DNA of 64,000 bases. It comes from Deltaproteobacteria bacterium (lineage in GTDB: Bacteria > Desulfobacterota > Desulfobaccia > Desulfobaccales > 0-14-0-80-60-11). Location: NCBI GenBank assembly GCA_030655955.1, contig JAUSOZ010000015.1, forward strand, positions 1,669 to 65,668. Direction: 5' to 3'. Shown piece by piece: positions 1-19,845 of the stretch; the first letter of the stretch is position 1, and every line of letters begins with the position of its first letter. Under the pieces are notes generated by a model, which worked only from the letters and a program-made list of their open reading frames with translations, did no database searches and was not told the origin of the DNA. The translations under genes and the position numbers were made by a program.

Positions 1-804
1 GCGATCTGCCGCAAGGTCCTGCCCCAGGAAAAGTCCCTGAAATATGGCCTGCTCATCCACTCCACCAACGTCCTGAATGATTTTTATCCGATTTTCTGGG
101 GCTTCGGCGGCCAGGTCAACAATGACGACGGCCAGTTTGTCCTGTCCGACAAGCCCAACGCCGAGGCCTTCGTAGCGGCGCTCAAAGCGCTTATCGCCAT
201 GCAGGGGAGCATTATGCCGGGGCCCGGGGCGCTGAAACAATTCGACCCCGGGGGGAGCCTGCGGCAGGCTTTTTTCCAGGGCCAGACCCTGTTTATGATC
301 AACTGGAGCACCCGCATGAAAGACTTGGGCGATTTGATTGCCAAAGGGGGTGGCCAGCCCCCGGGGAGCCTCACCAGCTTCAGCCAGGTGGGAGTGGCCC
401 CCATCCCGGCCCAGGCGGGTCATCCGCACCGCTATTCCAACATCGGCTCTTTTGGCTGGGCCGTCAACCGCTTTTCCGTGACCGATCCGGTGGTCATCGA
501 GCATGCCAAGCAGTTTATCGGGGTGGTGGCCGGCGAGCAATTTCAGCTCCTGGCGGCGGAAACCATGGGGCAGGTGCCGTCCCTCGTTCGGGCCCTGAAA
601 AAGGTCACCAACAAAGAAGTGTTGCAGGTGTACAATGACACCTTTGCCCAGAAAGATATGGTAATGCGCCCCCGGCCCCATAGCCGCCGGATCAACAATG
701 TGTTGGAAAAAGTCCTGGATGAGGCCCTGAATGGCCGGCAAACCCCGGAGGCGGCCCTGGCTGGGGCGCTTGCGGAACTAAAAAAAGACCAAACTTCTGA
801 TTAA
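1..804 (+). CDS. Extracellular solute-binding protein (ABC family-1 type), 5' end outside window
   Basis: Frame 1 is open from base 1 to TAA at 802-804, so the 199..804 track ORF is only the Met-initiated tail. The sequence looks like the C-terminal lobe of a periplasmic sugar/solute-binding protein (FYPIFWGFGG, LFMINWS, C-terminal GRQTPEAALAGA). Confidence 0.65.
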   Translation, partial: AICRKVLPQEKSLKYGLLIHSTNVLNDFYPIFWGFGGQVNNDDGQFVLSDKPNAEAFVAALKALIAMQGSIMPGPGALKQFDPGGSLRQAFFQGQTLFMINWSTRMKDLGDLIAKGGGQPPGSLTSFSQVGVAPIPAQAGHPHRYSNIGSFGWAVNRFSVTDPVVIEHAKQFIGVVAGEQFQLLAAETMGQVPSLVRALKKVTNKEVLQVYNDTFAQKDMVMRPRPHSRRINNVLEKVLDEALNGRQTPEAALAGALAELKKDQTSD

Positions 805-2448
805 ATGAACACATCCGAGAACTTCATTCGCTATTCTCTACGGAACCGGCTATTCGTCCTGGCCGGGGCCACGTTCTTTTTATGCGCTTTGGTCATCCTG
901 CTGTTCTTTCCCCTACTTAACCTCACCCTGGAAGGGCTCCAGAACCGTACCATCAATTCCATGCAAGCAGCCGCCGAAGTGGAGGCCACCACCATCTCCC
1001 GGCTCCTGGTCCTGGAATTTTCGTCGCTCAAGGGGTTGTTGAAGGTGACGCCGGCATCGAATACTGAGACAGATCAGTGGATCAAAGATCTCTTGTGGGA
1101 GAAGGTCACTTTCAATGAAATCATCGAAGGGGTTGAGCTGATCCAGGGGCAGAAAGACGCCGAGGGCCGGCACCTGACCTACCTGTTTTATCGCCGGGAG
1201 GCCCCGGAACTGAAGCCCATGCCCGGCCCCCAAAAAATCATGAAGTCGTTTCAAGGCCTGGAAAAGGACCTCATCAACAGCATCACAACGCAGCAGCGGG
1301 TGGACAACACCATCCAGGAATCCGTCAATCGGGGTCCTAAAGCAGAAGGGGAGATGCTGCTGCGCTACATGCCGGTGCACGTGCTGCTGGCGGATGAGGG
1401 GGCAGTCTTCTGGGGCGTGGCCAAAATCGGCATCGACACCAACCGGATGCGCCAACTGCTGCTCATTCAGAGCCAGGAGCAGACCAATATCCGCTGGAAC
1501 ATCTGGGTGGAAATGATTCTGAGCCTGTTTATCTCCGGGGTCCTGGCCATGAGCCTCATCTACTTCTGGGTGCGGCACATCACCGAGCCTTTAAGGACCC
1601 TCAGCATGGTGACCGGGGCTTTGCAGGGCGCCAAACCTGAAGATTTCGATCTTTGGCTGGAGAACCTGAAACGGGTCGATGCCCAGGGACAGGCCGAGGT
1701 GGTGGTGATCCAGAAGGTTCTGGAACGCCTGGGTACGGCCGTGCCCAAACTGGGGCAGCGGCTCATTGACGGGGAAGCCCGGGCCTGTCTCGGGAAGGTG
1801 ATAGCCCGTGGGCTTCCGGTCTTTCAGGCCCGGCAGGCTCAATTGCAGGCTCTGGAGCAGGAACTGGGCCACGGAGAGGCCACCGGGCCGGCCCACCAGA
1901 CCCTGACCTTGGTACGGGCCAGAATTGATATGGTTTTTGACGATCTCTCCCACCTCTGGTCTGACCCCAAAGACCAGTGGGATCGCATTGATGTCACCCC
2001 CGGGTTGCAGCGAGCCTGGCGTCTGGCGACCATAGGGCTGCCGGCGGAGGTAACGCAGCACCAGGAGTTTGCGCCTCTGCCGCCGGTCTGGGGGTCAGAG
2101 GCCAAGTTGACCCTGGCCGGGCTCTATCTCCTGGCTTTTGCCGTGGATCTGGTTCCGCCGGCCGGGGAATTAGGTATTAAGGTGGAGACCAGCCCGGCGG
2201 GAGGGGTCCGTCTGACCGTCTGGGTTTCCGGAAACCCGCGCTCGGATGCGGAGTGTCAGGGGTGGTTAAATCCGTTCGGCGATCCGGGCCGGATTCAGGG
2301 AAGCCTGGGGCCGGCCCTGGCCGCGGCCATCGCCTCCCAGCACCGCGGTAGTCTCACGGTGGCGCCCCGGGAGTCCGGCGGCGCGGTCTTCTCCCTGGAA
2401 TTACCCCCTTTAGCGGCCTCACAGGAACCTCATGAACCGGTTATTTAG
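805..2448 (+). CDS. HAMP-containing sensor histidine-kinase-like protein with degenerate ATP-binding boxes
   Basis: ATG at 805 directly abuts the upstream stop. Two TM segments bracket a ~190-aa periplasmic region. These are followed by a HAMP-like segment (ITEPLRTLSMVTGAL), a helix with a single His (DDLSHLWS) and a C-terminal GHKL-like fold ending SGGAVFSLELP. N/G1/G2 box positions read LLAFAVD / VSGNP / GSLGPAL. Confidence 0.6.
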   Translation: MNTSENFIRYSLRNRLFVLAGATFFLCALVILLFFPLLNLTLEGLQNRTINSMQAAAEVEATTISRLLVLEFSSLKGLLKVTPASNTETDQWIKDLLWEKVTFNEIIEGVELIQGQKDAEGRHLTYLFYRREAPELKPMPGPQKIMKSFQGLEKDLINSITTQQRVDNTIQESVNRGPKAEGEMLLRYMPVHVLLADEGAVFWGVAKIGIDTNRMRQLLLIQSQEQTNIRWNIWVEMILSLFISGVLAMSLIYFWVRHITEPLRTLSMVTGALQGAKPEDFDLWLENLKRVDAQGQAEVVVIQKVLERLGTAVPKLGQRLIDGEARACLGKVIARGLPVFQARQAQLQALEQELGHGEATGPAHQTLTLVRARIDMVFDDLSHLWSDPKDQWDRIDVTPGLQRAWRLATIGLPAEVTQHQEFAPLPPVWGSEAKLTLAGLYLLAFAVDLVPPAGELGIKVETSPAGGVRLTVWVSGNPRSDAECQGWLNPFGDPGRIQGSLGPALAAAIASQHRGSLTVAPRESGGAVFSLELPPLAASQEPHEPVI

Positions 2449-3247
2449 GCTGGTAAGGGTCCTGGGCGGCCTCCTGGGGCAGGCCTGGGGTAATTTCGTC
2501 GCCCGGCTGTCCCGATTGCTCGACATCTGCGCCATGTTCCATCGCCTCTTCATAGGAGCCTTCATCGGTCCCCCCTGCATAGGCCTGTTCTTCCGGGAAC
2601 TGAGCCGGCAGGTGTATTTCACCGCTATCCGGCGGGCCTATATCCTGGTCTTTACGTCCCTCATACTGGGCATGCTGGTGATCGTCAACGCCACCCAGCA
2701 GTTGGTCAAGCTCCAGGGACAGGAATTCATCGGCTGGCTGCTGGTCACCATCGTGGTGCGGGAGGTGGGGCCGGTGTGGGCGGCGTTTTTCGTCCTGCTC
2801 AATTCCGGCGCCGCCATCACCGTGGAAATCGGCAACATGTCGGTAAACCAGGAGATCCGGGCCTTGAGTATGATGGGCATCGACCCCTATCGTTACCTGG
2901 GGGTGCCGCGTTTCTGGGGGATGACCATCAGCCTGATGTGCCTCTATATCCTCTGCGTGTTTACCGCCGTCATCGGGGGGTATCTCTTTGCCCAGGCGTT
3001 TGCCGAGATCTTCTGGGCCAAGTTCTGGCTGTCGTTCGTCAATGCCTTCCAAATGACTGACCTGGCCGTGGGTTTTGCCAAGACCACGCTCTTTGCCATG
3101 CTCATTGCCACCGTGTCCCTCTATTTCGGCTTCAGTTGCCGCACTAACGTGGACGAGGTGGCGCGCAATACCTCCGAAGCGGCCATCTGGAGCCTGGTGC
3201 TTATTGGGGCCACGAACATCATCCTGACTGCGGCTTATTACCTGTGA
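2432..3247 (+). CDS. MlaE/Ttg2B-family ABC transporter permease
   Basis: Family-typical core VREVGPVWAAFFVLLNSGAAITVEIGNMSVNQEIRALSMMGIDPYRYLGVPRF with multiple TM helices. The start overlaps the upstream gene end by 17 nt. Confidence 0.8.
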   Translation: MNRLFRLVRVLGGLLGQAWGNFVARLSRLLDICAMFHRLFIGAFIGPPCIGLFFRELSRQVYFTAIRRAYILVFTSLILGMLVIVNATQQLVKLQGQEFIGWLLVTIVVREVGPVWAAFFVLLNSGAAITVEIGNMSVNQEIRALSMMGIDPYRYLGVPRFWGMTISLMCLYILCVFTAVIGGYLFAQAFAEIFWAKFWLSFVNAFQMTDLAVGFAKTTLFAMLIATVSLYFGFSCRTNVDEVARNTSEAAIWSLVLIGATNIILTAAYYL

Positions 3248-3257
3248 GCCCCCCCGG

Positions 3258-4007
3258 TTGGGGCCGCCGCCAAGCGTAACGGTATCTATGCTGCACCATG
3301 CCTTGAATCTGGATATGGTCACCCTGCCGGGAGATAGCTCCTGGCCCGCGCCCCTGTCCCTGGCGGTGGCGTTCAACGAGGTTGTGCTCATCGAAGGGGC
3401 CGGCCTGGCCGTGAGTTCGCCCCTGCTGGAAGTGGCGTCCACGCTCGCCGCCCCGGTGGCGGGCCACGTCCGCCATTGGGGCCGGGACGCGGCAACGCGG
3501 CGCCGGGAAAAGCTCTTTCGCCTCCGGCGCCGCATCGCCTATATCTCGCCCCAGCAGGTGCTGCTGCACCTCATGAGCCTCGCCGAGAATATCGCCCTGG
3601 GTCCCTGTTATTACCAGGGATGCTCGGAAGCGGAGGCTTTAGGGCCCCACGCCGACTTGCTGGAGCAACTGGAACTTAAGGCCCATCTCACCCGGTACCC
3701 GACTCAGGTGTCCAACGCCATCTACGGCCGGGCCGTGTGGGCCCGGGAACTGGTAAAAGGGCCGGAGTTGATTCTGGCGGCAATCGAAGGCGAGTTCGCC
3801 ACCACCGCCGGGGCCGCCATGCTGGCCGGCGTCCTCCGGGAGTACCGGACCCGGTACGGAGCCGCCGTCCTGCTGCTGGGCGAATCCCTGGAAGCCTTTT
3901 ACCCCCTGGGGCATCGGCTCCTCTTGCTGGAGGCGGGGCAACTCCGCAAGCAGACCATCCTGGAACACCGGGCCCGTCCCCTGACGGCGTACCTGCATCT
4001 GGTATGA
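3258..4007 (+). CDS. ABC ATPase-like protein with Walker A, signature and Walker B all degenerate
   Basis: ABC-fold landmarks are present (RIAYISPQQ Q-loop region, ENIALGP). However, Walker A reads EGAGLAVSS (no GK[ST]), the signature reads VSNAI (not LSGGQ) and Walker B reads ELILAAIEG (Asp lost). The start could instead be the Met at 3288. Confidence 0.6.
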   Translation: MGPPPSVTVSMLHHALNLDMVTLPGDSSWPAPLSLAVAFNEVVLIEGAGLAVSSPLLEVASTLAAPVAGHVRHWGRDAATRRREKLFRLRRRIAYISPQQVLLHLMSLAENIALGPCYYQGCSEAEALGPHADLLEQLELKAHLTRYPTQVSNAIYGRAVWARELVKGPELILAAIEGEFATTAGAAMLAGVLREYRTRYGAAVLLLGESLEAFYPLGHRLLLLEAGQLRKQTILEHRARPLTAYLHLV

Positions 4008-4138: not shown

Positions 4139-5203
4139 TTAAAGGACGGCGGTTCCGGCTATTTTGGCCGCGGTCTCGGCCCGCTTGGCCTTCCACATGG
4201 CGCCCAGGATGATCAAGGCGCCAAAGCCCAGGGCGCCGCACATGATGAGAAAGCTGGCAGTGCCCAGGATCGACAGAGTGCTGTCACTCATGGAGATGAG
4301 CTTCAATTCGGTGAGATATCTCGGCACGGCCAGGCCCCGGCTCACCGCCACGATGAGCATGATGCTGCCCATGACGACCTTGACCATGTGTTCTTTGACG
4401 TAGGTGGTGCCGATGGCCCCCAGTTGCACCCCAAAAAGGGACCCGGCCAGAATGATCAGGGTCAGGCGGATGTCTACCTGGCCGTGCATGGCCCACTTGA
4501 TGGTGCCGAAGAAACCCATGACGAAGGCGATGACCAGTTCCGTGGCCGAGGACACCAGGCCTCCGGCCCCCACCACATAGATCATACCGGGCACCCCAAT
4601 GAAGCCGCCTACCGCGATGGTGGCCGCCAGCATGCCGGTAGCGAAACCCACGGGGATGGTGAACCACATGGAGATGCGCACGTTGGCGGTCTTGAAGTGC
4701 ATCATGGGGGGCAGATTGATGGACTGCAGCCATAGGGCTAGGGCGCAAGTCTTTTCCTCACTGCCGGACTTGCCGGTCTTCATGGCGTCATAGAAGACAT
4801 AGCCGCCCACCACCACCAGGATGACCACGAAGGAGGCGCTGACATAGAGGTTGGAGCCGGACTGGCCCCATTTGGCCAGGATCATCTCCTGGATCTGGAT
4901 GCCCACCCACACCCCGATGCCGGCGGAGGCCGCCATGACCAGGCCCAGCTTAATGTCAACCTGGCCGTACTTCCAGCGCTTGTACGCCCCTACCATGGCC
5001 TTGGGGAACTTGTGGCACATGTTGCTGGCCACGGCCACGGTCCCGGGGACCCCCAGACTCATCATCCCCGGGGTCAGGACAAAGGCGCCGCCGGAGCCGA
5101 TGAAGCCGCTCACCAGGCCGCCGATGAATCCTACGACAAACAGAAAAAGTATGGACATTAAGGTTAAGTCGATAAAATTGACGCTGCTGGCGACATCCTG
5201 CAT
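4139..5203 (-). CDS. TauE/SafE-family anion exporter membrane protein
   Basis: Two internal repeats with GxxGGxxSGxxGxGGxxxxxP-like motifs (GFIGGLVSGFIGSGGAFVLTP; GMLAATIAVGGFIGVPGM), ~8 TM helices, and RBS GGGAGGAAG upstream of the ATG. Confidence 0.8.
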   Translation of the reverse strand: MQDVASSVNFIDLTLMSILFLFVVGFIGGLVSGFIGSGGAFVLTPGMMSLGVPGTVAVASNMCHKFPKAMVGAYKRWKYGQVDIKLGLVMAASAGIGVWVGIQIQEMILAKWGQSGSNLYVSASFVVILVVVGGYVFYDAMKTGKSGSEEKTCALALWLQSINLPPMMHFKTANVRISMWFTIPVGFATGMLAATIAVGGFIGVPGMIYVVGAGGLVSSATELVIAFVMGFFGTIKWAMHGQVDIRLTLIILAGSLFGVQLGAIGTTYVKEHMVKVVMGSIMLIVAVSRGLAVPRYLTELKLISMSDSTLSILGTASFLIMCGALGFGALIILGAMWKAKRAETAAKIAGTAVL

Positions 5204-5359: not shown

Positions 5360-6187
5360 TCAGGCATCCAGATGTAGCTGCGGGCGGGGACGCTTTCTCG
5401 GCGCCGGCCGCTTCGGGGCCACCCGAGGCTGCACCTTCTTGGCGGCTTCGATGCCCAGGAGCGACCACAGGTTAGAGGCAAAAGAGGCATGTACAAACGA
5501 GAAGGCGAACACCGTGACAATGGGCAACGCCGCAAAGATGCCGCCCTTGGTGAAATACTTCATGACGGTGGCTGAATTGGTAAACACTGCGGCATAGAGG
5601 GCCGCGGAAGCCAGCCCTAAACCAATGGTCCTGGTGATCAACTTCCCCCGGTTCGCCGTTTCATGATGTTCTTGAGCCATAACCTTTTCTCCTTGATATC
5701 CTGAGATGCTGAAGACGGGGAGAGGAATCTCCCCCGTGATTTCCTGGTCCTTGATGCCGGAATCGGTGATGACGAAGTCGATGCGCTTGACTTCGTGGTT
5801 CAGGTCCTTGATGGCCCCGGCCAAACCCTCAAATTTCACCACGTGCTCGCTCTTGATGCCCTGGCTGGCCAACTCGGAGGCCACCGGCACCCAGGCTTCT
5901 TGGGCCCGCTGGGTAAACTTTCCCCGCAGGTGTTGATTGTAGGGGGAAAAGAACTTGCCCGAAGTACTCAGGGCCGGATTGACGCTCATGGCGATAATGT
6001 CATACCCCAATCGCTGGGAGAGGTTAGCGGCATAATCGACCACCCCGTTACTGAAGGCGTAATCCTTGCCCACCACCAGGATTTTCCGCTTGACTTCCTG
6101 GCTGGGGTTGGAGGTGGTGCCAATGCTGCCGGAGCTTTCGTCCACTGCCTTCCTGCCTTTGCCTTTTTGGTCGCTAACATTCTTCAT
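5360..6187 (-). CDS. USP-like (adenine-nucleotide alpha-hydrolase fold) domain protein with C-terminal 2-TM anchor
   Basis: N-terminal KILVVGKDYAFSNGVVDYAANLSQRLGYDIIAMSV ... VKRIDFVITDSG resembles a USP/ETFP fold. The C-terminus has two hydrophobic helices. Start chosen at MKNVSD (6187), preceded by GAGGGGAAGG. The track ORF extends to 6274. Confidence 0.5.
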   Translation of the reverse strand: MKNVSDQKGKGRKAVDESSGSIGTTSNPSQEVKRKILVVGKDYAFSNGVVDYAANLSQRLGYDIIAMSVNPALSTSGKFFSPYNQHLRGKFTQRAQEAWVPVASELASQGIKSEHVVKFEGLAGAIKDLNHEVKRIDFVITDSGIKDQEITGEIPLPVFSISGYQGEKVMAQEHHETANRGKLITRTIGLGLASAALYAAVFTNSATVMKYFTKGGIFAALPIVTVFAFSFVHASFASNLWSLLGIEAAKKVQPRVAPKRPAPRKRPRPQLHLDA

Positions 6188-6350
6188 GGCTTTTGCCTTC
6201 CCCTCTGTTTCCTTCTGCCCACCTGGAAGCGGGGGGTTGATCTTGCCTTTATACCTATACAAGAACGGTGCCAAACTCGATGGCTTTTATATATAATTGA
6301 TTTTACTACAATATTATGATTTTCCCGGTTTATCCCCGGATATTCCCAGC

Positions 6351-6594: not shown

Positions 6595-8610
6595 ATGATT
6601 ATGGGTTTCTTTCGGAAGATGACTGAAGAAGAGCACCCCAAGCTGGCTCAGGAGCTGGTGGAACTGCGTGCCGCGGTGCAAAAAGCCCAACTGCCGGAGT
6701 CGGTGGCCGCCATTGCCGCCAAGGAGTTGGAGCGGCTGGACAAAACCGATGCCTCCGTGGCCGAGTACAGCATCGGCATCAACTACCTGGATTACCTGAT
6801 CTCCCTGCCCTGGAACCGCTTCACGGAAGATAACCTTGACCTCAAGAGGGCGGAGCGCATCCTGGAGTCCCAGCACTTTGGCCTCCATCATGTCAAAGAG
6901 CGCATCCTGGAGTTTCTGGCGGTCCGCACCCTGTGCAGTGTCCAGACCTCCCAGATCCTGGTGGTGGACGACGAGGAAATCGCCCGGACTAACCTGGAAT
7001 ATATCCTGAGAAAAGAAGGCCACCAGGTGACCACTGCGGCCAATGGCCTGGAAGCCCTGGAAAAGGTCAAGGCCCAGGAGTTCGACGTCGTTCTCACCGA
7101 TCTGAAGATGGAGAAGATGGACGGCATTCAGCTGCTGGAATCCGTCAAGCAGATCGCGCCCCATACTGAAATTGTCATGGTTACCGGTTACGCCACGGTG
7201 AGCTCCGCAGTCGACGCCCTGAAAAAGGGCGCGGCGCACTACTTATCCAAGCCCATCAAACTCGATGAGCTCAGGGCCACGGTGCGGGAAATCATCGACA
7301 AAAAGCGGCACGTGCAGATGAACCGAGGGCCCGTGCTGTGCTTCGCCGGGCCTCCCGGCACCGGCAAGACCTCCATCGGCCAGGCCATCGCCGAGGCCCT
7401 GGAACGCAAGTTCGTGCGCCTGTCCCTGGCAGGGCTTAGGGACGAGGCGGAGCTGCGGGGCCACCGCCGCACCTACGTGGGGGCCATGCCCGGGCGCATC
7501 ATCAACGAACTCAAGCGCCTGGAGGTCAAGAACCCCGTGTTCATGCTGGATGAAATCGACAAGATCGGCCAGGATTTTAGGGGCGACCCGGCCTCGGTGC
7601 TGCTGGAAATCCTGGATCCCCAGCAAAACTCTAAATTCGTCGACCACTACGTGGACGTGCCCTTTGACCTGTCCGGCGTCATGTTCATCACCACCGCCAA
7701 CGTGGTGGAGACCTTGCCCGCGCCCCTCCTGGACCGCCTGGAGGTCATCTATTTTCCCGGCTACACCGAGCAGGAAAAAATCCAGATCTCCCAGCACTTT
7801 CTCGTCCCCCGTCAACTCCGGGAACACGCCCTGGCGCACCTGGGAATCGAGTTTACCGATCCCGCGGTTGCCAAGGTCATCGGCGGCTACACCCGGGAGG
7901 CGGGTCTCCGCAACCTGGAGCGGGAAATTGCCATGGTCTGCCGCAAACTGGCCCGCATCTGCGTCCAGAGCAAGGGGACCTGCGCTCTCAGTATCGACGA
8001 AGAGTTGGTGGAGAAATTTCTCGGACCCCGAAAATTTACCCACGAAGTGGCGGAGGTCGGCAATCAGGTGGGGGTGACCACGGGTCTGGTCTGGACCGAA
8101 TTCGGCGGGGAAATCATCTTCGTGGAAGCCACTCGCATGCGGGGACACAAGCAGTTGATGCTCACCGGCTCCCTGGGCACCGTCTTGCAGGAATCAGCCC
8201 AGACCGCGCTGTCCTATATCCGCAGCCACGCCGAGGCCTTCGACCTGGACCCGGACTTCTTCACCGAGAGTGACATCCACATCCACCTGCCCTCCGGGGC
8301 CATCCCCAAAGAAGGGCCCTCCGCCGGGGTCACCATCGCCCTGGCCCTGCTCTCCTTGCTCACCGGACGGCCCGCCCGCCGGGACGTGGCCCTGACCGGC
8401 GAGCTGACCCTTTCCGGCCGCATCCTGCCGGTGAGCGGCATCAGAGAGAAGGTTCTGGCGGCCCAGCGGGCCGGGGTCAAGGTGGTGGTCTTCCCCAAAA
8501 AAAACGAAGTCGACATCGTCAACCTGGAAGATCAGGTCAAGGCGGGCTTGGAGATTGTCCTGGCCGAGGCCATTGAACCCCTGGTGGACCTGGTGCTGCT
8601 GCCTAAATGA
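6595..8610 (+). CDS. lon: Lon-family ATP-dependent protease lacking the LON N-domain and carrying an inserted response-regulator receiver domain
   Basis: aa 1-110 align to the Lon helical linker (LISLPWN, HFGLHHVKERILEFLAV). aa 121-236 form a complete REC domain (VVDDEE, LTD169LKM, MVTGY, LSKP). These are followed by Walker A GPPGTGKT, Walker B FMLDEIDK, and the protease Ser (PKEGPSAGVT) and Lys (GIREKVLAA). The ATG at 6601 has better RBS spacing (GAGAGGG) than 6595. Confidence 0.9.
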   Translation: MIMGFFRKMTEEEHPKLAQELVELRAAVQKAQLPESVAAIAAKELERLDKTDASVAEYSIGINYLDYLISLPWNRFTEDNLDLKRAERILESQHFGLHHVKERILEFLAVRTLCSVQTSQILVVDDEEIARTNLEYILRKEGHQVTTAANGLEALEKVKAQEFDVVLTDLKMEKMDGIQLLESVKQIAPHTEIVMVTGYATVSSAVDALKKGAAHYLSKPIKLDELRATVREIIDKKRHVQMNRGPVLCFAGPPGTGKTSIGQAIAEALERKFVRLSLAGLRDEAELRGHRRTYVGAMPGRIINELKRLEVKNPVFMLDEIDKIGQDFRGDPASVLLEILDPQQNSKFVDHYVDVPFDLSGVMFITTANVVETLPAPLLDRLEVIYFPGYTEQEKIQISQHFLVPRQLREHALAHLGIEFTDPAVAKVIGGYTREAGLRNLEREIAMVCRKLARICVQSKGTCALSIDEELVEKFLGPRKFTHEVAEVGNQVGVTTGLVWTEFGGEIIFVEATRMRGHKQLMLTGSLGTVLQESAQTALSYIRSHAEAFDLDPDFFTESDIHIHLPSGAIPKEGPSAGVTIALALLSLLTGRPARRDVALTGELTLSGRILPVSGIREKVLAAQRAGVKVVVFPKKNEVDIVNLEDQVKAGLEIVLAEAIEPLVDLVLLPK

Positions 8611-14059: not shown

Positions 14060-14746
14060 ATGTGGACGGGTATCGTGAATTTCGCCGTGGATTTAACCCC
14101 TTTATGGTTGACCTTAAAAGTGGCAGGAGTGGCCACCCTGGTGACTTTTATCGTCGGGGTGAGTCTGGCCTTCCTGGTGGCCCGGAGCCGGTTTTGGGGC
14201 CGGGAAGGTCTGGACGCCCTGTGCACCCTGCCCCTGGTGCTGCCGCCCACGGTCCTGGGCTACTACCTCATCGTCCTGATCGGGCGGAATGGTTGGTTGG
14301 GCCGCTGGCTCCAGGAAACCTGGGGGATTTCCTTAATTTTTACCTGGCAGGGCGCGGTCCTGGCCGCGGCCGTGGTGTCCCTGCCCCTGATCTTCAAATC
14401 GGCCCCGGCTGCCTTTGAAGAGGTGAACCTTGAGCTGGAAAATGCCGCCCGCACTCTGGGCCTGTCCGAGACGGCGGTCTTTTTCCGGGTATCTCTCCCC
14501 CTGGCCTGGCGGGGGATTCTGGCCGGGGGCATGCTGGCCTTCGCCCGGGCCATGGGTGAGTTCGGCGCCACCCTGATGGTGGCCGGCAACCTTCCCGGCA
14601 AGACCCAGACCCTGTCCCTGGCCGTGTACGACGCGGTCCAGGCCGGCAATGACGCGAGAGCCACCGTCCTGGTAATTATCATTTCGACGGTATGCCTTAC
14701 CATCCTGGTGGTCTCCGGCAAGGCCTTCAAGGCTGGCTATATGTGA
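14060..14746 (+). CDS. modB: Molybdate ABC transporter permease
   Basis: ModB-typical LTPLWLTLKVA, CTLPLVLPPTVLGYYL and the EAA loop ENAARTLGLSETAVFFRVSLPLA. Confidence 0.85.
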   Translation: MWTGIVNFAVDLTPLWLTLKVAGVATLVTFIVGVSLAFLVARSRFWGREGLDALCTLPLVLPPTVLGYYLIVLIGRNGWLGRWLQETWGISLIFTWQGAVLAAAVVSLPLIFKSAPAAFEEVNLELENAARTLGLSETAVFFRVSLPLAWRGILAGGMLAFARAMGEFGATLMVAGNLPGKTQTLSLAVYDAVQAGNDARATVLVIIISTVCLTILVVSGKAFKAGYM

Positions 14747-14762
14747 AGGAAAGGAGATTTGT

Positions 14763-15524
14763 GTGACTAATCTGAAGTCCATCATCATGCTGTTATTGGG
14801 TGTTATGCTTATCTGGCCGGCGCCGGCCCTGGCCGACCAGGAACTGATCGTCTCCGCTGCTGCCAGCCTCACCAATGCCATGAAGGAGGCGGCCGGGCAA
14901 TTCGAGGCCACCCATCCCGGCACCAAAATCCTGTGTAATTTTGCATCATCCGGTTCCTTGCTGCAGCAAATGGCTCACGGCGCCCCGGTGGACGTGTTTG
15001 CCGCGGCGGACCAAAAGACCATGAATCAGGCCCAGGAGAAGGGGCTCATCGTGCCGGCCAGCCGGAAAAATTTTGTCAGCAACAGCCTGGTGCTCATCAA
15101 ACCTCTGGATTCCCCACTGGCCTTGGGCGGTCTTCAGGACCTGGCCAAACCGGAGGTGAAGCGGGTGGCGGTGGGTAACCCGGCCACTGTGCCCGCAGGG
15201 CGTTACACCAAAGAGGCCCTGGTGAAGGCGGGTCTGTGGGATCAGCTGAGCCCCAAGTTCATCATGGCGGAGTCGGTGCGCCAGGTCCTGGATTACGTCG
15301 GCCGGGGCGAGGTGGACACGGGCTTTGTTTATTCAACCGACGCGGCCATTGCCCGGGGGAAGGTCAAGGTCATGCAGACGGTGGAGGGCCACGCCCCCAT
15401 CCTCTATCCCCTGGCCATCACCGCGGCCACGGGAAAGAAAGTCCTGGCCCAGAGCTTTGTTGATTTTATCTTGAGCCCGGCTGCCCAGGAGATCTTCAAG
15501 AAATATGGCTTTGGCCCAGCCTAG
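14763..15524 (+). CDS. modA: Molybdate-binding periplasmic protein
   Basis: GTG start preceded by AAGGAGA. Signal peptide, then ELIVSAAASLTNAM ... NFASSGSLLQQ ... VDVFAAAD ... VAVGNPATVPAGRY ... GFVYSTDA, typical of ModA. Confidence 0.85.
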   Translation: MTNLKSIIMLLLGVMLIWPAPALADQELIVSAAASLTNAMKEAAGQFEATHPGTKILCNFASSGSLLQQMAHGAPVDVFAAADQKTMNQAQEKGLIVPASRKNFVSNSLVLIKPLDSPLALGGLQDLAKPEVKRVAVGNPATVPAGRYTKEALVKAGLWDQLSPKFIMAESVRQVLDYVGRGEVDTGFVYSTDAAIARGKVKVMQTVEGHAPILYPLAITAATGKKVLAQSFVDFILSPAAQEIFKKYGFGPA

Positions 15525-15568
15525 CCGGTTCAGCAGGGTTACCCGCGGGTAGCAAGGCCGATAACATC

Positions 15569-16312
15569 ATGAAAATCATGGTAGATATCAAAAAACGGTT
15601 GTGGTCGGGACGGCGGGTCTTCCGCCTGGAAGTGGCGTTTGCCTCGGATAAAGACTTCGTCGTCCTGTTCGGTCCCTCGGGGGTGGGCAAAAGTCTCACC
15701 CTGCAGACGATCGCCGGCCTCACTACCCCGGATGAAGGGCGCATCGTGGTGGGGGAGCGAACCCTTTTCGATTCCTCCCGGAAGATCAGGGTACCGGCCC
15801 GCCATCGGAACGTGGGCTATGTCTTCCAGGATTACGCCCTGTTTCCCCACCTGACGGTGGCCCAGAATGTTTCTTTCGGTCTGAAACAAGGCTGGCCCTG
15901 GTACCTGCCGCGGGGAGAACGGCTGCGCCTGGATGAGGCGCTGGAGATTTTTGAGTTGACTCCCCTGAAATACTCCCTGCCCCGGGACCTGTCCGGAGGA
16001 CAACGGCAGCGAGTCGCCCTGGCCCGGGCCCTCATCCGTCGCCCCAGCCTGCTGCTCCTGGATGAGCCGTTTTCATCCCTGGATGCCCTGCTGCGAGTCA
16101 AAATGCGCCAGGAACTTTTGAAGCTTAAGGAGCGGTTTACCATTCCGGTCATACTCATAACCCATGATCCCCAGGACGTGGCGGCCCTGGCGGAAACCGT
16201 GGTGGTCTATGAACATGGCCGGGTGAGTAAAATAATTTCACCACCCAAACACGATTACCCGGTAAGGGAACGCCCCTCGTTATCATCCTGGGCCGCCAAC
16301 CTGTGCGCATGA
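15569..16312 (+). CDS. modC: Molybdate-type ABC transporter ATPase, short form without TOBE domain
   Basis: Walker A GPSGVGKS, signature LSGGQRQRVALARAL, Walker B LLLLDEPFSSLD. At only 247 aa it has no C-terminal TOBE/Mop region. Confidence 0.8.
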   Translation: MKIMVDIKKRLWSGRRVFRLEVAFASDKDFVVLFGPSGVGKSLTLQTIAGLTTPDEGRIVVGERTLFDSSRKIRVPARHRNVGYVFQDYALFPHLTVAQNVSFGLKQGWPWYLPRGERLRLDEALEIFELTPLKYSLPRDLSGGQRQRVALARALIRRPSLLLLDEPFSSLDALLRVKMRQELLKLKERFTIPVILITHDPQDVAALAETVVVYEHGRVSKIISPPKHDYPVRERPSLSSWAANLCA

Positions 16313-16560
16313 ACTCGTCGCCAGAGAGAGCCGGGATTCATTCCCCACAATTACCTGATGGATAGGCTCGGAACCAGCGTCTTACTATCTACACCCACCC
16401 GCAGCGCCTGAGTGCTTTAGCTCAAAAGTAAAAACCTGAAGCCGGCGTTAAACGAGGGTGCCTCATCCCTGCGAGCCCCTGACCCCCCGGTATTCCCCTG
16501 AAATTCCGCCAGCCGCGCTAAGAAATTTTGTCGCAAAATCTCTGGTTTTGTTTTATGATC

Positions 16561-16590
16561 TTCGCTATTCTTACAAACAAATATCGGCAA
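16561..16590. promoter_or_regulatory. Weaker 8-6-8 box (GCTATTCT-N6-CAAATATC) upstream of the tupA-like gene
   Basis: ttcGCTATTCTtacaaaCAAATATCggcaa. The left half is identical to the other boxes and the right half is partial. It lies inside the spurious N-terminal extension of track ORF 16528. Confidence 0.35.
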
Positions 16591-16611
16591 TTGATACGGA
16601 TGGAGGAGAAG

Positions 16612-17472
16612 ATGCGGATCAAGAATTTATTGTCACTGTTTGCAGTTATCGCTCTCGTGATGTTGGGAACTTCGTGCTATGCCGGGGACCAGCCCGCCGC
16701 GGTTTATGGCAACGGCGCTAACCAATTTTCCCTGGCCACCGGCAGCCCCGGGGAGTTAGGGCTTTTACAGGTCCTGGCCGAGGCCTTCGGCAAGCAGGAC
16801 AACGCCAAAATGACCTGGTTTAAAGCCGGTTCGGGTAAGTCCCTGCAACTTCTGAAAGACAAGAAAGTGGACATGATCATGGTGCACGCCCCGGCGGCGG
16901 AAAAGAAGGCGGTACAAGATGGCTGGGCCACTAAGAAAACCCTCCTCGGCTCCAATGAGTTTTTCATCGTGGGTCCGGCCAATGACCCGGCCAAGATCGC
17001 CGGGGCCAAAACCGCGGTAGACGCTTACCGCCGCATTGCCGCCGCCAAGGCCAAGTTCTTCTCCCGGGGCGATAATTCCGGGACTCATAAGAAAGAAATG
17101 GGTATATGGAAGAAAGCCGAAATCAAGCCCCAGGGCGACTGGTACGTGGTCACCAAGGATTTTATGACCGCCACCTTAAAACGGGCCAACCAGGAAAAGG
17201 GTTATTTCATGGTGGACAGCAGCACCTGGGTGGCCGACAAGAAGGATGTTCCGAACCTGAAAATTCTCTTCAAAGGCGACAAACTGCTGGTGAATACCTA
17301 CCATGCGCTCTGCCAGCCGTCCGGCGCCACTCCGGGTGCGGGCACGGCCGCCAAATTCATCGACTTTGTGGCTTCTCCCCAGGGGCAAAAAATTATTCAG
17401 GATTACGGCCAGGACAAATATGGCACGGGGTTGTATAACGACGCGGCCTACGCCAAGCAATACGACGATTAA
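16612..17472 (+). CDS. TupA-like periplasmic oxyanion-binding protein (divergent paralog)
   Basis: ATG at 16612 is preceded by GGAGGAG and opens a lipoprotein-like signal peptide (MRIKNLLSLFAVIALVMLGTSCYAG). It shares SRGDNSGTHKKE and the overall alignment with the downstream TupA, but has LATGSPGELGL where TupA has ASTTSTQNSGL. Confidence 0.75.
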   Translation: MRIKNLLSLFAVIALVMLGTSCYAGDQPAAVYGNGANQFSLATGSPGELGLLQVLAEAFGKQDNAKMTWFKAGSGKSLQLLKDKKVDMIMVHAPAAEKKAVQDGWATKKTLLGSNEFFIVGPANDPAKIAGAKTAVDAYRRIAAAKAKFFSRGDNSGTHKKEMGIWKKAEIKPQGDWYVVTKDFMTATLKRANQEKGYFMVDSSTWVADKKDVPNLKILFKGDKLLVNTYHALCQPSGATPGAGTAAKFIDFVASPQGQKIIQDYGQDKYGTGLYNDAAYAKQYDD

Positions 17473-17542
17473 TCGGCGCGCCCCCGGTCGAACCCGGATC
17501 AGCCTTCCCTGTGGGGATAGACAAGCATAAGGAGAGAAAGGC

Positions 17543-18358
17543 ATGGCCAGAATTCTGTTGATAATGTCTCTGATAGGTTCACTGTTCATGGCTGCTAACG
17601 TTGCGGCGGAAACCCGGATCAAGTGCGCCTCTACCACCAGCACCCAAAATTCAGGACTGTTCGATTACCTGTTGCCCATCTTTGAGAAAAAGACCGGCAT
17701 CAAGGTGGACGTGGTGGCCGTGGGCACCGGCGCGGCCATCGAAATTGGCAAGCGGGGCGACGCCGACGTCGTGTTAGTGCACGCCAAGAACCAGGAATTG
17801 AAGGCCGTGGCCGAGGGGGCCTTCGTCAATCGCCATGACGTGATGTATAATGATTTTGTCGTCATCGGCCCGGCCAAAGATCCTCTGAAAATCAAAGGCA
17901 TGAAGACTGCGGCGGATGCCTTCAAGAAGATTGCGGACCAGAAGGCTGAATTTGTGTCTCGGGGGGATAAATCCGGCACCAATACCAAGGAGCTGGCCCT
18001 CTGGAAGAGCGCCGGCATCGATCCCAAGGGTCAGAAATGGTATTTGGAGGTGGGCCAGGGCATGGCAAAGACCCAGCGCATCGCCAATGAGAAGCGGGCC
18101 TACACCCTCACCGACCGGGGCACCTGGTTGGCCACCAAGGATAAGGATAAGCTGGAAATGGTGGTGGTGCTGGAAGGCGACCCCGTCCTGTTCAATCAAT
18201 ACGGGGTGATGGCGGTGAATTCCGAAAAACATAAGCAGGTGAAATATAAGGAGGCCATGGCCTTCGTGGATTGGCTCATCTCGCCGGCAGGCCAAAAGGC
18301 CATCGGTGACTATAAAGACAAGCTCGGGAATCAACTTTTTACTCCTAATGCCAAATAA
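17543..18358 (+). CDS. tupA: Tungstate-binding periplasmic protein
   Basis: Signal peptide, then the ASTTSTQNSGL (TTTS-type motif) and SRGDKSGTNTKE motifs typical of TupA. Confidence 0.85.
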   Translation: MARILLIMSLIGSLFMAANVAAETRIKCASTTSTQNSGLFDYLLPIFEKKTGIKVDVVAVGTGAAIEIGKRGDADVVLVHAKNQELKAVAEGAFVNRHDVMYNDFVVIGPAKDPLKIKGMKTAADAFKKIADQKAEFVSRGDKSGTNTKELALWKSAGIDPKGQKWYLEVGQGMAKTQRIANEKRAYTLTDRGTWLATKDKDKLEMVVVLEGDPVLFNQYGVMAVNSEKHKQVKYKEAMAFVDWLISPAGQKAIGDYKDKLGNQLFTPNAK

Positions 18359-18389
18359 CTGCGGCGGATAGGGCAGTCGCGTATGAGTT

Positions 18390-18417
18390 GTAGGGGCGGT
18401 GCCCTCACCGCCCCTAC
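18390..18417. repeat. GTAGGGGCGG..CCGCCCCTAC hairpin repeat (family B) between tupA and tupB
   Basis: gtaggggcggtgccctcaccgcccctac. The same stem sequence recurs at 23575, 45905 and, as a variant, at 43467. Confidence 0.7.
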
Positions 18418-18481
18418 GAGAACTTTTTTAAGCAGACCGAACCATGGGTTAGGAACTCTGGTCTGCCCTGGTTAATGCTCT

Positions 18482-19201
18482 ATGCAATCCATCCTCGAAG
18501 GGTTTGCTGCGGCCTTCCGGCTCATCGTCACCGGTAATCCGGAGCTGTGGCGCATTATCCTGTTATCTCTTGAGGTTTCGGGCACGGCCCTGATCCTGGC
18601 CACCGTCCTGGGCCTGCCGGTGGGCGCCTGCCTGGCTATGCGCCGGGTGCCGGTCAAGGGTTTGGTGATCAGCCTGCTCAACACCGGTATGGGCCTGCCG
18701 CCCGTGGCCGCGGGGTTGTTCCTCTACCTGTTTCTGTCCCGCAGCGGTCCCTTGGGGTTCATGGGCTTGCTCTACACCCCCACCGCCATGATCATTGTCC
18801 AGTGCATCCTCGCCTTCCCCATTGTGGCCTCCCTGTCCCATGCCGCCATTGCCAACGTGGACCCGGTGATCCGGCAGGCGGCCGTTACCCTGGGAGCCAC
18901 CCCCATCCAGGAGAGCCTCGCCGTCGTCAAGGAGGCCAGATACTCCATCATGGCGGGGGTCATGGCCGGGCTGGGCCGGGTCATGGCGGAGGTGGGGGCC
19001 ATCATTATCGTCGGCGGCAACATCGCCGGGTACACCCGGGTAATGACCACCACCATCGCCCTGGAGACCGACAAGGGCAACTTTGAACTGGCCATTGCCC
19101 TGGGAATAATTCTCTTGACCATCTCCTTTTCCATCACCGTGGCTCTGCGCTTTTTTCAAAGGCTGGGGCGCACCGGGACTTCGGCTGCTTCATGGGCTTA
19201 G
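18482..19201 (+). CDS. tupB: Tungstate ABC transporter permease
   Basis: Five or more TM helices and a binding-protein-dependent permease EAA-like loop (QAAVTLGATPIQESLAVVKEARYS). Position between tupA and tupC supports the call. Confidence 0.8.
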   Translation: MQSILEGFAAAFRLIVTGNPELWRIILLSLEVSGTALILATVLGLPVGACLAMRRVPVKGLVISLLNTGMGLPPVAAGLFLYLFLSRSGPLGFMGLLYTPTAMIIVQCILAFPIVASLSHAAIANVDPVIRQAAVTLGATPIQESLAVVKEARYSIMAGVMAGLGRVMAEVGAIIIVGGNIAGYTRVMTTTIALETDKGNFELAIALGIILLTISFSITVALRFFQRLGRTGTSAASWA

Positions 19202-19845
19202 AGCTGAAAATCGCGCACGTCTTCCGGAGTTACAACGGCAATCCCATTCTGCGCGATTGCTCTTTTGGCTTCGCCAGTGGGCGCACTTACGTGCTGCAGG
19301 GTCCCAACGGCAGCGGCAAATCCACCCTGTTCCGGGCCCTGGCCCTGTTGGAAAAACCCGACCGCGGCCGGGTAGAGTACCGCGACGGCGGCCGGATTCT
19401 TGCCGCCGACCTGGAATTGCGGCGCCGCATCACCCTGGTACTCCCCAGCACCGGCATTTTCAACACCACGGTGTTCAAAAATGTGGCTTATGGCCTGAAG
19501 ATCAGGGGGGTTACCGGCGCCGACCGAGAGGCGCGGGTCAATGACGCCCTGGCGGCCGTGGGCCTGGCGCATAAGAAATGGCACCGGGCCTCGGAGCTTT
19601 CCAGCGGCGAAACCAAGCGCCTGGGGATTGCCCGGGCCATGGTGATTAACCCGGAAGTCCTGATGCTGGATGAACCCACCGCCAACATTGACCCGGCCAA
19701 TACGGCAATCATCGAGTCCATTATTTTGAAGATGCGGCAGGAGCGGTCCGCCACCATCCTGATGATCACCCACGATCCGGCCCAGGCGGAGCGGTTGGGT
19801 GATGACCTGCTGTTCATGCAAGAGGGCAAAATTATCCCGGCCTGA
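19192..19845 (+). CDS. tupC: Tungstate ABC transporter ATPase
   Basis: Walker A GPNGSGKS, signature LSSGETKRLGIARAM, Walker B VLMLDEPTANID. The start overlaps the tupB end by 10 nt. Confidence 0.8.
   Translation: MGLELKIAHVFRSYNGNPILRDCSFGFASGRTYVLQGPNGSGKSTLFRALALLEKPDRGRVEYRDGGRILAADLELRRRITLVLPSTGIFNTTVFKNVAYGLKIRGVTGADREARVNDALAAVGLAHKKWHRASELSSGETKRLGIARAMVINPEVLMLDEPTANIDPANTAIIESIILKMRQERSATILMITHDPAQAERLGDDLLFMQEGKIIPA

Follow-up and report, generated by a model that had tools for sequence, protein, structure and literature searches.

The window analysed here, by which we mean the whole stretch of 64,000 nucleotides (64 kb) from contig JAUSOZ010000015.1 of the Deltaproteobacteria bacterium assembly GCA_030655955.1, starts on its + strand (1-4007) with four consecutive genes that encode a solute-binding protein (SBP), a pseudo-histidine kinase, an MlaE permease and a pseudo-ABC ATPase. 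The kinase-like protein lacks all catalytic features of a histidine kinase while the fold is retained, and the ATPase-like protein, judged from its alignments, lacks all catalytic features of an ABC nucleotide-binding domain (NBD), yet it matches NBDs over its full length. Because the frames, the dead motifs, the dN/dS ratios and the gene junctions are conserved, a retained non-catalytic role is reasonable for both proteins, which are probably structural or regulatory parts and not enzymes. Together, the four genes constitute the 3' half of a gene cluster that is conserved in Desulfobaccales, and their pair of MlaE and dead NBD seems to descend from MCE-type systems in which MlaE, a degenerate NBD, MlaD and a tetratricopeptide repeat (TPR) lipoprotein are encoded together. 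The system is of the MlaE/MCE type, with each part of recognisable ancestry, and is not categorically new. As a model, which we put forward tentatively and hold to be somewhat short of probable, the four proteins would constitute a non-hydrolysing MlaE-based envelope complex that is regulated by the SBP and the pseudo-kinase.

Loss of catalytic motifs in the ATPase-like and the kinase-like protein

The last gene of the operon (3288..4007, + strand) encodes the pseudo-ABC ATPase (pNBD), a dead nucleotide-binding domain of 239 amino acids that is recognised by a sub-cutoff match to ABC_tran and by NCBIfam NBD models. On ABC_tran (PF00005) the protein scores 19.0 bits, which is under the Pfam gathering threshold of 25, and as an internal control two motif-intact ABC ATPases encoded in the window score 97 and 107 bits on the same model. 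NCBIfam models of DevA/FtsE/LolD/MacB-type NBDs match amino acids 33-230 at E-values of 1e-16 to 1e-11, and the NBD structures of MacB and FtsE in the PDB are matched by HMMER with E 5.6e-11 over near the full length of the protein; its sequence resembles MacB/FtsE/LolD/DevA-type NBDs slightly more than MlaF. From sequence alignment, the ABC NBD fold is predicted to be retained. The loss of motifs was read from the HMMER alignment with these MacB and FtsE domains and from a MAFFT alignment to the NBD of MJ0796, and the results agree. The Walker A motif GxxGxGK[ST], which is GASGSGKST in the reference, is replaced by GAGLAVSSP (3396..3422, + strand), so that the former P-loop is left without its Lys and without its Ser/Thr, and no GK[ST] was found when it was sought across the entire protein. 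In the adjoining stretch of the signature and Walker B (3708..3791, + strand), LSGGQ has become VSNAI (VSNAIYG, 3708-3728), with QVSxAIY as the family consensus and PDDLY, EEEVG and similar in deeper members; the next helix, RAVWAREL, follows at 3729-3752, and in the former Walker B (LILAAIEG, 3768-3791), which corresponds to hhhhDE and to ILADE in the reference, Asp is changed to Ala and Glu to Ile. The His of the former H-loop is replaced by Glu (LLGES, 3873..3887, + strand; HMMER/MAFFT alignments). The only motif left is the Gln of the Q-loop, with which ISPQQ is aligned. A preliminary description of this DNA, which had been made from the letters and the open reading frames alone, had already claimed the loss of the Walker A Lys, of LSGGQ and of the Walker B Asp; the profile alignments agree with this, and the loss of the H-loop His can be added.

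The kinase-like protein (805..2448, + strand; ATG 805, stop TAG 2446-2448) is a membrane pseudo-histidine kinase of 547 amino acids. Its first transmembrane helix (amino acids 16-38) is followed by a periplasmic domain of ~190 amino acids, a second transmembrane helix (233-256), a possible HAMP-like linker and a cytoplasmic part with a hairpin similar to dimerization and histidine phosphotransfer (DHp) domains (~314-386) and a domain similar to catalytic and ATP-binding (CA) domains (~390-540). Of the transmembrane-periplasmic-transmembrane-HAMP topology that had been proposed, the first three elements are supported by the hydropathy of an 82%-identical orthologue, whereas the HAMP domain is unconfirmed: a Pfam HAMP scan of the protein with E-values up to 1 gave no match, the stretch RHITEPLRTLS...G after the second helix is HAMP-like by eye, and the helices modelled there by AlphaFold2 (AF2) are of low confidence. 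On HATPase_c (PF02518) the protein scores 20.7 bits versus a cutoff of 26.4, and the profile of its family matches the cytoplasmic domain (DHp-CA) of ZraS with E 5e-13. In the AF2 model amino acids 320-540 have pLDDT values of 70-90, and the best Foldseek matches are ZraS, HK853, KinB, DivL (4q20) and CckA (E 5e-13 to 1e-9, probability 1.0), with BceAB-S (8g3a) also among the structural matches. Thus, the GHKL-like fold that had been ascribed to the protein is supported by AF2 and Foldseek for both DHp and CA.

Within this fold, the ATP-binding boxes of the CA-like domain are degenerate (2113..2331, + strand; HMMER alignment to ZraS, KdpD and ThkA). The Asn of the N box, LAGLYLLAFAVD (2113-2148), is replaced by Tyr, the G1 box TVWVSGNPRS (2215-2244) carries VSGNP instead of DxGxG, the F box reads WLNPFG (2263-2280), and in the G2 box, QGSLGPALAAAI (2296-2331), GxGLGL has become GSLGPAL, all on the + strand. 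Between ZraS and the profile of the kinase-like family the corresponding pairs are LLNLYLNA/vlyLldfA, TDSGKGI/VSGekrs and GTGLGLA/qgsLGpA, and the substitutions, which were read in 18 diverse members, are found in 18/18 of them; the earlier claim that the N box Asn and the glycine boxes G1 and G2 are lost is therefore sustained. The region expected to hold the H-box, LIDGEARACLGKVIARGLP (1762..1818, + strand; alignment of kinase-like homologues), contains no His, and depending on the register the candidate position is occupied by G/N/D/T or by V/I. The DHp helices (amino acids 290-400) are without any conserved His, the only invariant His of the protein being H513 in the CA-like domain, and therefore the phospho-acceptor has been lost too, a loss that the preliminary description had not mentioned. 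Furthermore, neither a response regulator nor an active kinase is conserved in the 8-gene neighbourhood described below. As phospho-acceptor His and regulator are both missing, the operon does not encode a two-component system.

Very few pseudo-histidine kinases are known in bacteria, the main one being DivL. DivL retains an ATP-binding CA domain and acts in a phosphorelay with DivK and CckA. In LuxP-LuxQ, TorT-TorS and BceAB-BceS kinase and ATPase are active and a response regulator belongs to the module. The operon resembles LuxP-LuxQ and TorT-TorS in having a binding-protein gene beside a membrane sensor with a periplasmic domain, and BceAB-BceS in encoding a transporter and a kinase-fold protein as one unit, but here neither kinase nor ATPase is active and no regulator is linked. 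With DivL the kinase-like protein shares a DHp and CA fold without phospho-acceptor His, and in both cases conservation implies a non-catalytic role (PMC4211667; structural match 4q20); unlike DivL, it has a large periplasmic domain and is coupled to a transporter permease, to which it would be wired instead of to a phosphorelay. This likeness bears on the possibility of pure signalling, in which SBP and pseudo-kinase would steer an unlinked active kinase or regulator by protein contacts, with MlaE and pNBD as a Bce-like co-sensor. Such a function would be in line with the retained DHp and CA fold, with DivL and BceAB-S as structural matches and with the 0-nt junction of the SBP and pseudo-kinase genes, and DivL is a precedent for a repurposed non-phosphorylating histidine kinase (PMC4211667). 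However, the ATP-binding domain of DivL still works and a Tyr occupies the place of its His, whereas the N, G1 and G2 boxes are all lost here; the surroundings of the operon contain neither a response regulator nor an active kinase that is conserved, the receiver-Lon fusion 2.6 kb downstream being syntenic in the closest relatives only; and the sister systems described below are MCE-type transport operons without a kinase. We thus regard pure signalling as unlikely and keep the non-hydrolysing envelope complex as the preferred reading.

The two remaining proteins are recognised by regular family matches. The MlaE-family permease of 271 amino acids (2432..3247, + strand; ATG 2432, stop TGA 3245-3247) scores 184.8 bits on Pfam MlaE (PF02405) versus a cutoff of 22.5 and covers profile positions 2-211 of 212, while its 143.7 bits on TIGR00056 are under the stricter cutoff of 212.2. 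Solved MlaE permeases are matched over the full length with E-values of 8e-30 to 1e-22 (7ch8, 8e-30; 6xbd, 2e-23), and the protein has six hydrophobic segments. The SBP gene (1..804, + strand; stop TAA 802-804) is cut by the left edge of the window; its frame is open from base 1 and its start lies upstream, so that the C-terminal 267 amino acids of a sugar-type binding protein are seen. This partial protein scores 34.3 bits on SBP_bac_1 versus a cutoff of 26, a full-length orthologue 64 bits. Full-length orthologues are lipoproteins of 448-459 amino acids, with the lipobox LLGC in the orthologue, for which the nearest solved structures are MalE3, a trehalose/maltose-binding protein and the sulfoquinovosyl-glycerol-binding SmoF. 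Despite the SBP, the operon is not an SBP-dependent ABC importer of type I or II, because the sole permease is MlaE and not BPD_transp_1 or FecCD and because the ATPase is dead.

Retention of the operon among relatives

Among 5.8 billion proteins searched, the ATPase-like protein has 252 homologues and the kinase-like protein 209, of which the 120 best were listed for each. The 120 listed kinase-like homologues are 70-97% identical, the dead ATPase motifs recur in the best 120 of the pNBD homologues, and the named sources are all Desulfobaccales or related 'Deltaproteobacteria' metagenome-assembled genomes (MAGs). When 1.84 billion cluster representatives were searched with a profile, the pNBD proved to form a small isolated family with ~20 representatives below 1e-30, and its deeper members of ~35-45% identity are likewise motif-dead. 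From GTDB genomes 16 loci were recovered; the loci from 15 genomes have intact frames, at identities of 53-95% across the examined loci, and the few breaks are all in long-read assemblies (L010, L014 and L015 contain frameshifts). All relatives are MAGs or metagenome contigs. None of the orthologues examined has intact motifs, and profile alignments place no working Walker boxes or N/G boxes elsewhere in either protein, so that the two findings which the preliminary description had named as fatal to its reading did not turn up.

The genes are also held together in a conserved way. Within the window, the frames and stops read from the DNA agree with the earlier statement of four intact, tightly packed genes, with a gap of 0 nt between SBP and pseudo-kinase (the TAA is directly followed by ATG 805) and an overlap of 17 nt between pseudo-kinase and MlaE (from ATG 2432 to the end of the kinase-like stop). 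A gap of 10 nt between MlaE and the ATPase-like gene, which had been given as well, has to be corrected: it rests on TTG 3258, the start of the longest open reading frame. With few exceptions, the 120 listed homologues have 239-240 amino acids and their initial Met matches ATG 3288, and the same ATG was chosen by the gene caller on a 4.7-kb public contig with an identical protein; the gene therefore most likely starts at ATG 3288, which leaves a gap of 40 nt. This last junction is not translationally coupled. The order of major facilitator superfamily (MFS) protein, SBP, pseudo-kinase, MlaE and pNBD is present in all 14 GTDB loci with sufficient upstream sequence as well as in L003 and L032, with spacings of ~10, 0, -17 and ~40 nt in most loci and the 17-nt overlap in nearly all relatives. 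The spacer between MlaE and the dead NBD reaches 438 nt in L003 (9563-10000) and 239 nt in L019 (9762-10000). A scan for promoters and terminators 3' of the operon found none.

Pairwise dN/dS ratios (Nei-Gojobori, window versus up to 19 related loci), a crude measure in a GC-rich genome, are 0.20-0.32 for the kinase-like gene, 0.21-0.40 for MlaE, 0.19-0.37 for the SBP and 0.26-0.60 for the NBD-like gene. The pNBD gene is the most relaxed of the four, yet it is clearly constrained, and purifying selection acts on both pseudo-enzymes. For all four genes dS is low for the protein divergence, e.g., ~0.3 at 77% protein identity; dS is probably deflated by strong GC3/codon constraint, so that the reported ratios are probably over-estimates. 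Where the constraint lies was read from the frequency of the commonest residue in 23 pNBD representatives of less than 80% identity. The former Walker A and the former signature both reach 0.57, the mean of the protein is 0.69, and the RAVWAREL helix reaches 0.88; the region of the Q-loop likewise ranks with the best conserved parts, and conserved scaffold motifs are RAVWAREL, NIALGPCY and EHRARPLT. A dead site under purifying selection, as had been envisaged for the substitutions, is thereby rejected, since the former catalytic positions are the least conserved of the protein. Rather, the conservation pattern suggests that the fold and likely docking surfaces have been kept, while the nucleotide site appears to have been abandoned and not to have been turned into a new active site.

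The genes might also be recent pseudogenes or functionless relics with fortuitously long frames. Both proteins indeed stay under the Pfam cutoffs, the NBD-like gene is the fastest evolving with dN/dS up to 0.6, and a second copy in the L015 MAG has broken kinase-like and NBD-like frames. On the other hand, for each protein more than 200 clustered homologues have an intact frame, at 53-95% identity in the examined loci, dN/dS is well below 1 in all four genes, scaffold motifs are highly conserved and so are the coupled junctions, and the breaks in L015 occur in a long-read assembly with frameshifted neighbour genes. Decay can thus be given next to no credence, in agreement with the earlier argument that two degenerate proteins with intact frames do not reflect random decay, and retention in a non-catalytic role is preferred.

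Two MAGs hold two copies of the operon, namely one with L015 (7528-10697) and L010 and one with L007 and L008. L015 may be a decaying paralogue or may suffer from long-read indel errors, and neighbour genes of L010 and L014 show frameshifts as well. L007 and L008 are 11% apart in nucleotides and are either paralogues or mixed strains.

Relation to MCE-type transport systems

The nearest proteins outside the pNBD family are degenerate single-domain NBDs (P0268, P0272 and P0274) and the partly degenerate P0278 and P0304. The genomic contexts of P0268, P0272, P0278 and P0304 have one four-gene operon layout in common (4/4 looked up), which consists of MlaE, the NBD, an MlaD that is extended by a helical C-terminus, and a fourth protein of ~315 amino acids; the latter is a TPR protein in 3/3 sister operons for which DNA is available (L021, L026, L027). 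The window pNBD is 30-33% identical to the sister NBDs with 72-75 bits, versus 22% and 44 bits for the intact MlaF-type ATPase of a relative. Like the window operon, these operons of Syntrophobacteria and other uncultured bacteria have MlaE before the NBD and degenerate motifs; unlike it, they contain no SBP, pseudo-kinase or MFS gene and have the MlaD-TPR pair in the same operon, and their NBD degeneracy varies, as P0278 and P0304 keep a Walker A. In the Syntrophobacteria subfamily around P0272 the P-loop is ADPHHHGEI, the signature LSPGGRR and Walker B LVLESP. In the NBD of L026 (8001-8756) and its subfamily (P0272, P0391-P0415) a conserved His-rich ADP[H/R]HHGEI stands in place of the P-loop. 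Unlike the variable P-loop of the window family, it looks like a newly constrained site, possibly for metal or anion binding.

That no MlaD/MCE partner is present, as had been stated, holds within the window but not for the family as a whole. A tblastn search of the 64-kb window, which reaches 60 kb downstream of the operon, with two types of MlaD gave no match, and no MlaD is found within +/-10 kb of the operon in L032, the closest relative (91% identical). In four relatives, however, an orphan MlaD-TPR pair adjoins the operon at 0.2-7 kb: it lies directly upstream on the same strand in L008 and 0.2-7 kb downstream in L003, L012 and L019. The TPR protein of L003 has a lipoprotein-like signal, and the orphan MlaD of L003 is 30% identical to the in-operon MlaD of the sister system in L021 (177 bits). 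The simplest history is that a module of MlaE, degenerate NBD, MlaD and TPR was split and that its first half was joined to MFS, SBP and pseudo-kinase. For the window, the MlaD partner is either encoded elsewhere in the genome or dispensable.

Compared with MlaFEDB, the MCE-family ABC transporter for phospholipids of Escherichia coli, Acinetobacter baumannii and Pseudomonas aeruginosa, the operon has a full-length MlaE homologue with a single-domain NBD gene immediately downstream, and its sister operons and some of its relatives carry an MlaD (MCE) gene. It differs in that its NBD has lost Walker A, signature, Walker B and H-loop, that a STAS protein (MlaB) and MlaC are absent from the operon and MlaD from the window, and that MlaE is preceded by the coupled genes for SBP lipoprotein and pseudo-kinase. 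Having no active MlaF, no MlaB and no in-operon MlaD, it stands outside the MlaFEDB class. LetAB and PqiABC are a precedent for MCE-type conduits of envelope lipids that do not need an ABC ATPase, but their inner-membrane subunits LetA and PqiA are unrelated to MlaE and the two systems have no NBD-like subunit, whereas here the ABC architecture is kept in a dead form. For LetAB, the authors state that it is unclear whether transport is passive or driven by the proton-motive force (PMC13017536). In literature searches that covered Mla systems with a dead NBD, pseudo-ATPases and, for Desulfo- taxa, Mla/TPR, neither such a system nor an MlaE-coupled pseudo-kinase nor the sister systems with MlaE, degenerate NBD, MlaD and TPR were found described; a study of phosphate limitation in Desulfovibrio alaskensis concerns an ordinary Mla operon.

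A few kb downstream of the operon, L001/L011 and L016 contain a complete motif-intact Mla-like system that consists of a STAS-MlaE, an ABC_tran protein (87 bits), MlaD and an auxiliary lipoprotein. Since an intact system is located nearby in these relatives, the dead system is an addition to ordinary Mla and not its replacement. The same neighbours raise the question of energisation in trans, i.e., that an active MlaF-type ATPase encoded elsewhere powers this MlaE, either by itself or paired with a second MlaE, with the pNBD as heterodimer partner of the ATPase or as regulator. ABC transporters with only one competent nucleotide site are well known, e.g., type I exporters and CFTR (PMC7756269). 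Nevertheless, an active system is adjacent in 2 of ~14 independent loci only and is found neither in the window nor around the operon of the closest relative, known degenerate-site transporters keep nucleotide binding whereas the P-loop here is variable and without Lys or Ser/Thr, and there is no sign of pairing with the STAS-MlaE (34% identity, partial alignment). Energisation in trans is therefore considered rather improbable, and a complex without ATP hydrolysis of its own remains the preferred explanation.

Conserved neighbourhood and possible mechanism

The preliminary description had treated the four genes as the unit, which turned out to be too narrow, since the conserved order comprises three glycosyltransferase-like genes, a PucC-type MFS protein (PucC family, 220 bits), SBP lipoprotein, pseudo-kinase, MlaE and pseudo-ATPase. 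The identical protein is carried only by the public contig of 4.7 kb, and for the region upstream of the window the 91%-identical L032 stands in. The three upstream genes are present in 12 of the 14 GTDB loci reaching upstream and in L032 (L001 1352-4681; L032 3682-7006). Their products are a soluble protein of 406-408 amino acids with a DxD-like motif, a protein of 297/363 amino acids with partial similarity to glucosyl-3-phosphoglycerate synthase (GpgS; E 2.6e-11) and a GT4 glycosyltransferase; Pfam and NCBIfam gave nothing usable for the upstream proteins of 408 and 74 amino acids. The synteny points to a carbohydrate or glycoconjugate theme of the cluster, and the system may have its ligand or substrate made by the three genes.

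In the model of a non-hydrolysing MlaE-based complex, SBP, pseudo-kinase, MlaE and pNBD would form one complex in the inner membrane. A dimer of the dead NBD would cap the MlaE dimer statically from the cytoplasm; the Q-loop region and the post-signature helix are the best conserved parts of the pNBD. The pseudo-kinase would serve as a transmembrane adaptor, with a periplasmic domain reading the ligand state of the SBP lipoprotein, and would relay this state to MlaE as a conformational change without phosphotransfer. As neither hydrolysis nor phosphotransfer is available, any output must be conformational. The complex would work without ATP hydrolysis of its own, in a ligand-gated, passive or externally energised way, and would gate or assist the movement of an envelope lipid or glycoconjugate; it probably cooperates with the MlaD-TPR pair where this is present, and a link to whatever the three glycosyltransferase-like genes produce is probable too. 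Of the repurposed, non-hydrolysing signalling or scaffolding complex that had been proposed before, the retained and non-catalytic nature stands, whereas signalling or scaffolding is not supported, and no conserved regulator or active kinase is nearby.

Several points weigh against this model. MlaD is absent from the window and from L032 over the ranges given above (60 kb downstream and +/-10 kb, respectively), and the link to glycosyltransferases, which rests on synteny alone, has no counterpart in L003 and L008, where this synteny is missing. The spacing between MlaE and pNBD is loose (40-438 nt; 76-438 nt in divergent relatives), and the deep members P0243 and P0250 of the pNBD family are orphan genes far from any MlaE, so that the pNBD may act independently of MlaE. 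The AF2 model of the ATPase-like protein, made from a 13-sequence alignment, has a mean pLDDT of 37.6, the periplasmic domain of the kinase-like protein (amino acids 40-228) has a pLDDT of ~30, and the dN/dS ratios are crude as mentioned. The stand-alone deep pNBD members are located in L029 (7734-8456) and L023 (8001-8762), one of them between a glycosyltransferase and a Polbeta/HepT toxin-antitoxin pair and the other beside a BglII-type restriction-modification system.

A more far-reaching version would take the operon and its upstream genes as an ATP-independent pathway that makes and places an envelope glycolipid. Three cytoplasmic glycosyltransferases would build the glycolipid, the PucC-type MFS protein and the SBP lipoprotein would flip and extract it, and the MlaE core would hand it on, with the dead ATPase as cap and the pseudo-kinase, reading the SBP, as allosteric gate. 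In a wider sense, a whole lineage of MlaE-based MCE systems in Thermodesulfobacteriota would have retained the ABC architecture but abandoned ATP hydrolysis. LtaA, for example, flips a glycolipid. A parallel for MFS protein and lipoprotein is Rv1410-LprG, which handles triacylglycerol (PMC13017536). We regard this version as doubtful, and the more general non-hydrolysing complex is kept here. How MCE-type lipid transport is energised and in which direction the lipids move are open questions of the field, Mla being driven by an ABC ATPase and Let and Pqi having none. A natural lineage of MlaE and NBD without catalytic residues would be a ready-made 'ATPase-dead' experiment, showing what the MlaE core is capable of when nothing is hydrolysed and for which parts of the NBD the role is solely structural, and if SBP occupancy gates a lipid conduit via a kinase-fold adaptor, this would be a new mode of regulation of envelope transport. 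The system is known solely from MAGs of uncultured Desulfobaccales, which are relatives of sulfate reducers.

Downstream of the operon, three genes are common to the closest relatives only and lie outside the conserved unit. A TauE/SafE-family membrane protein (4139-5203, - strand; 125 bits) is encoded convergently with the operon and is adjoined by the gene for a protein of 304 amino acids without Pfam match (5360-6274, - strand). The third gene (6595-8610, + strand), 2.6 kb downstream of the operon, encodes a Lon protease with an N-terminal receiver domain (Response_reg, 110 bits, followed by AAA, Lon_lid and Lon_C); because of this domain, phosphorylation could control proteolysis. The receiver-Lon fusion was considered as output of the pseudo-kinase and rejected, as it is syntenic in the closest relatives L005 and L032 only. 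Further downstream, an SBP-dependent ABC transport cluster of the molybdate/tungstate/phosphate type (14060-19845, + strand; BPD_transp_1, SBP_bac_11, PBP_like_2) holds the two motif-intact ABC ATPases that served as the ABC_tran control.

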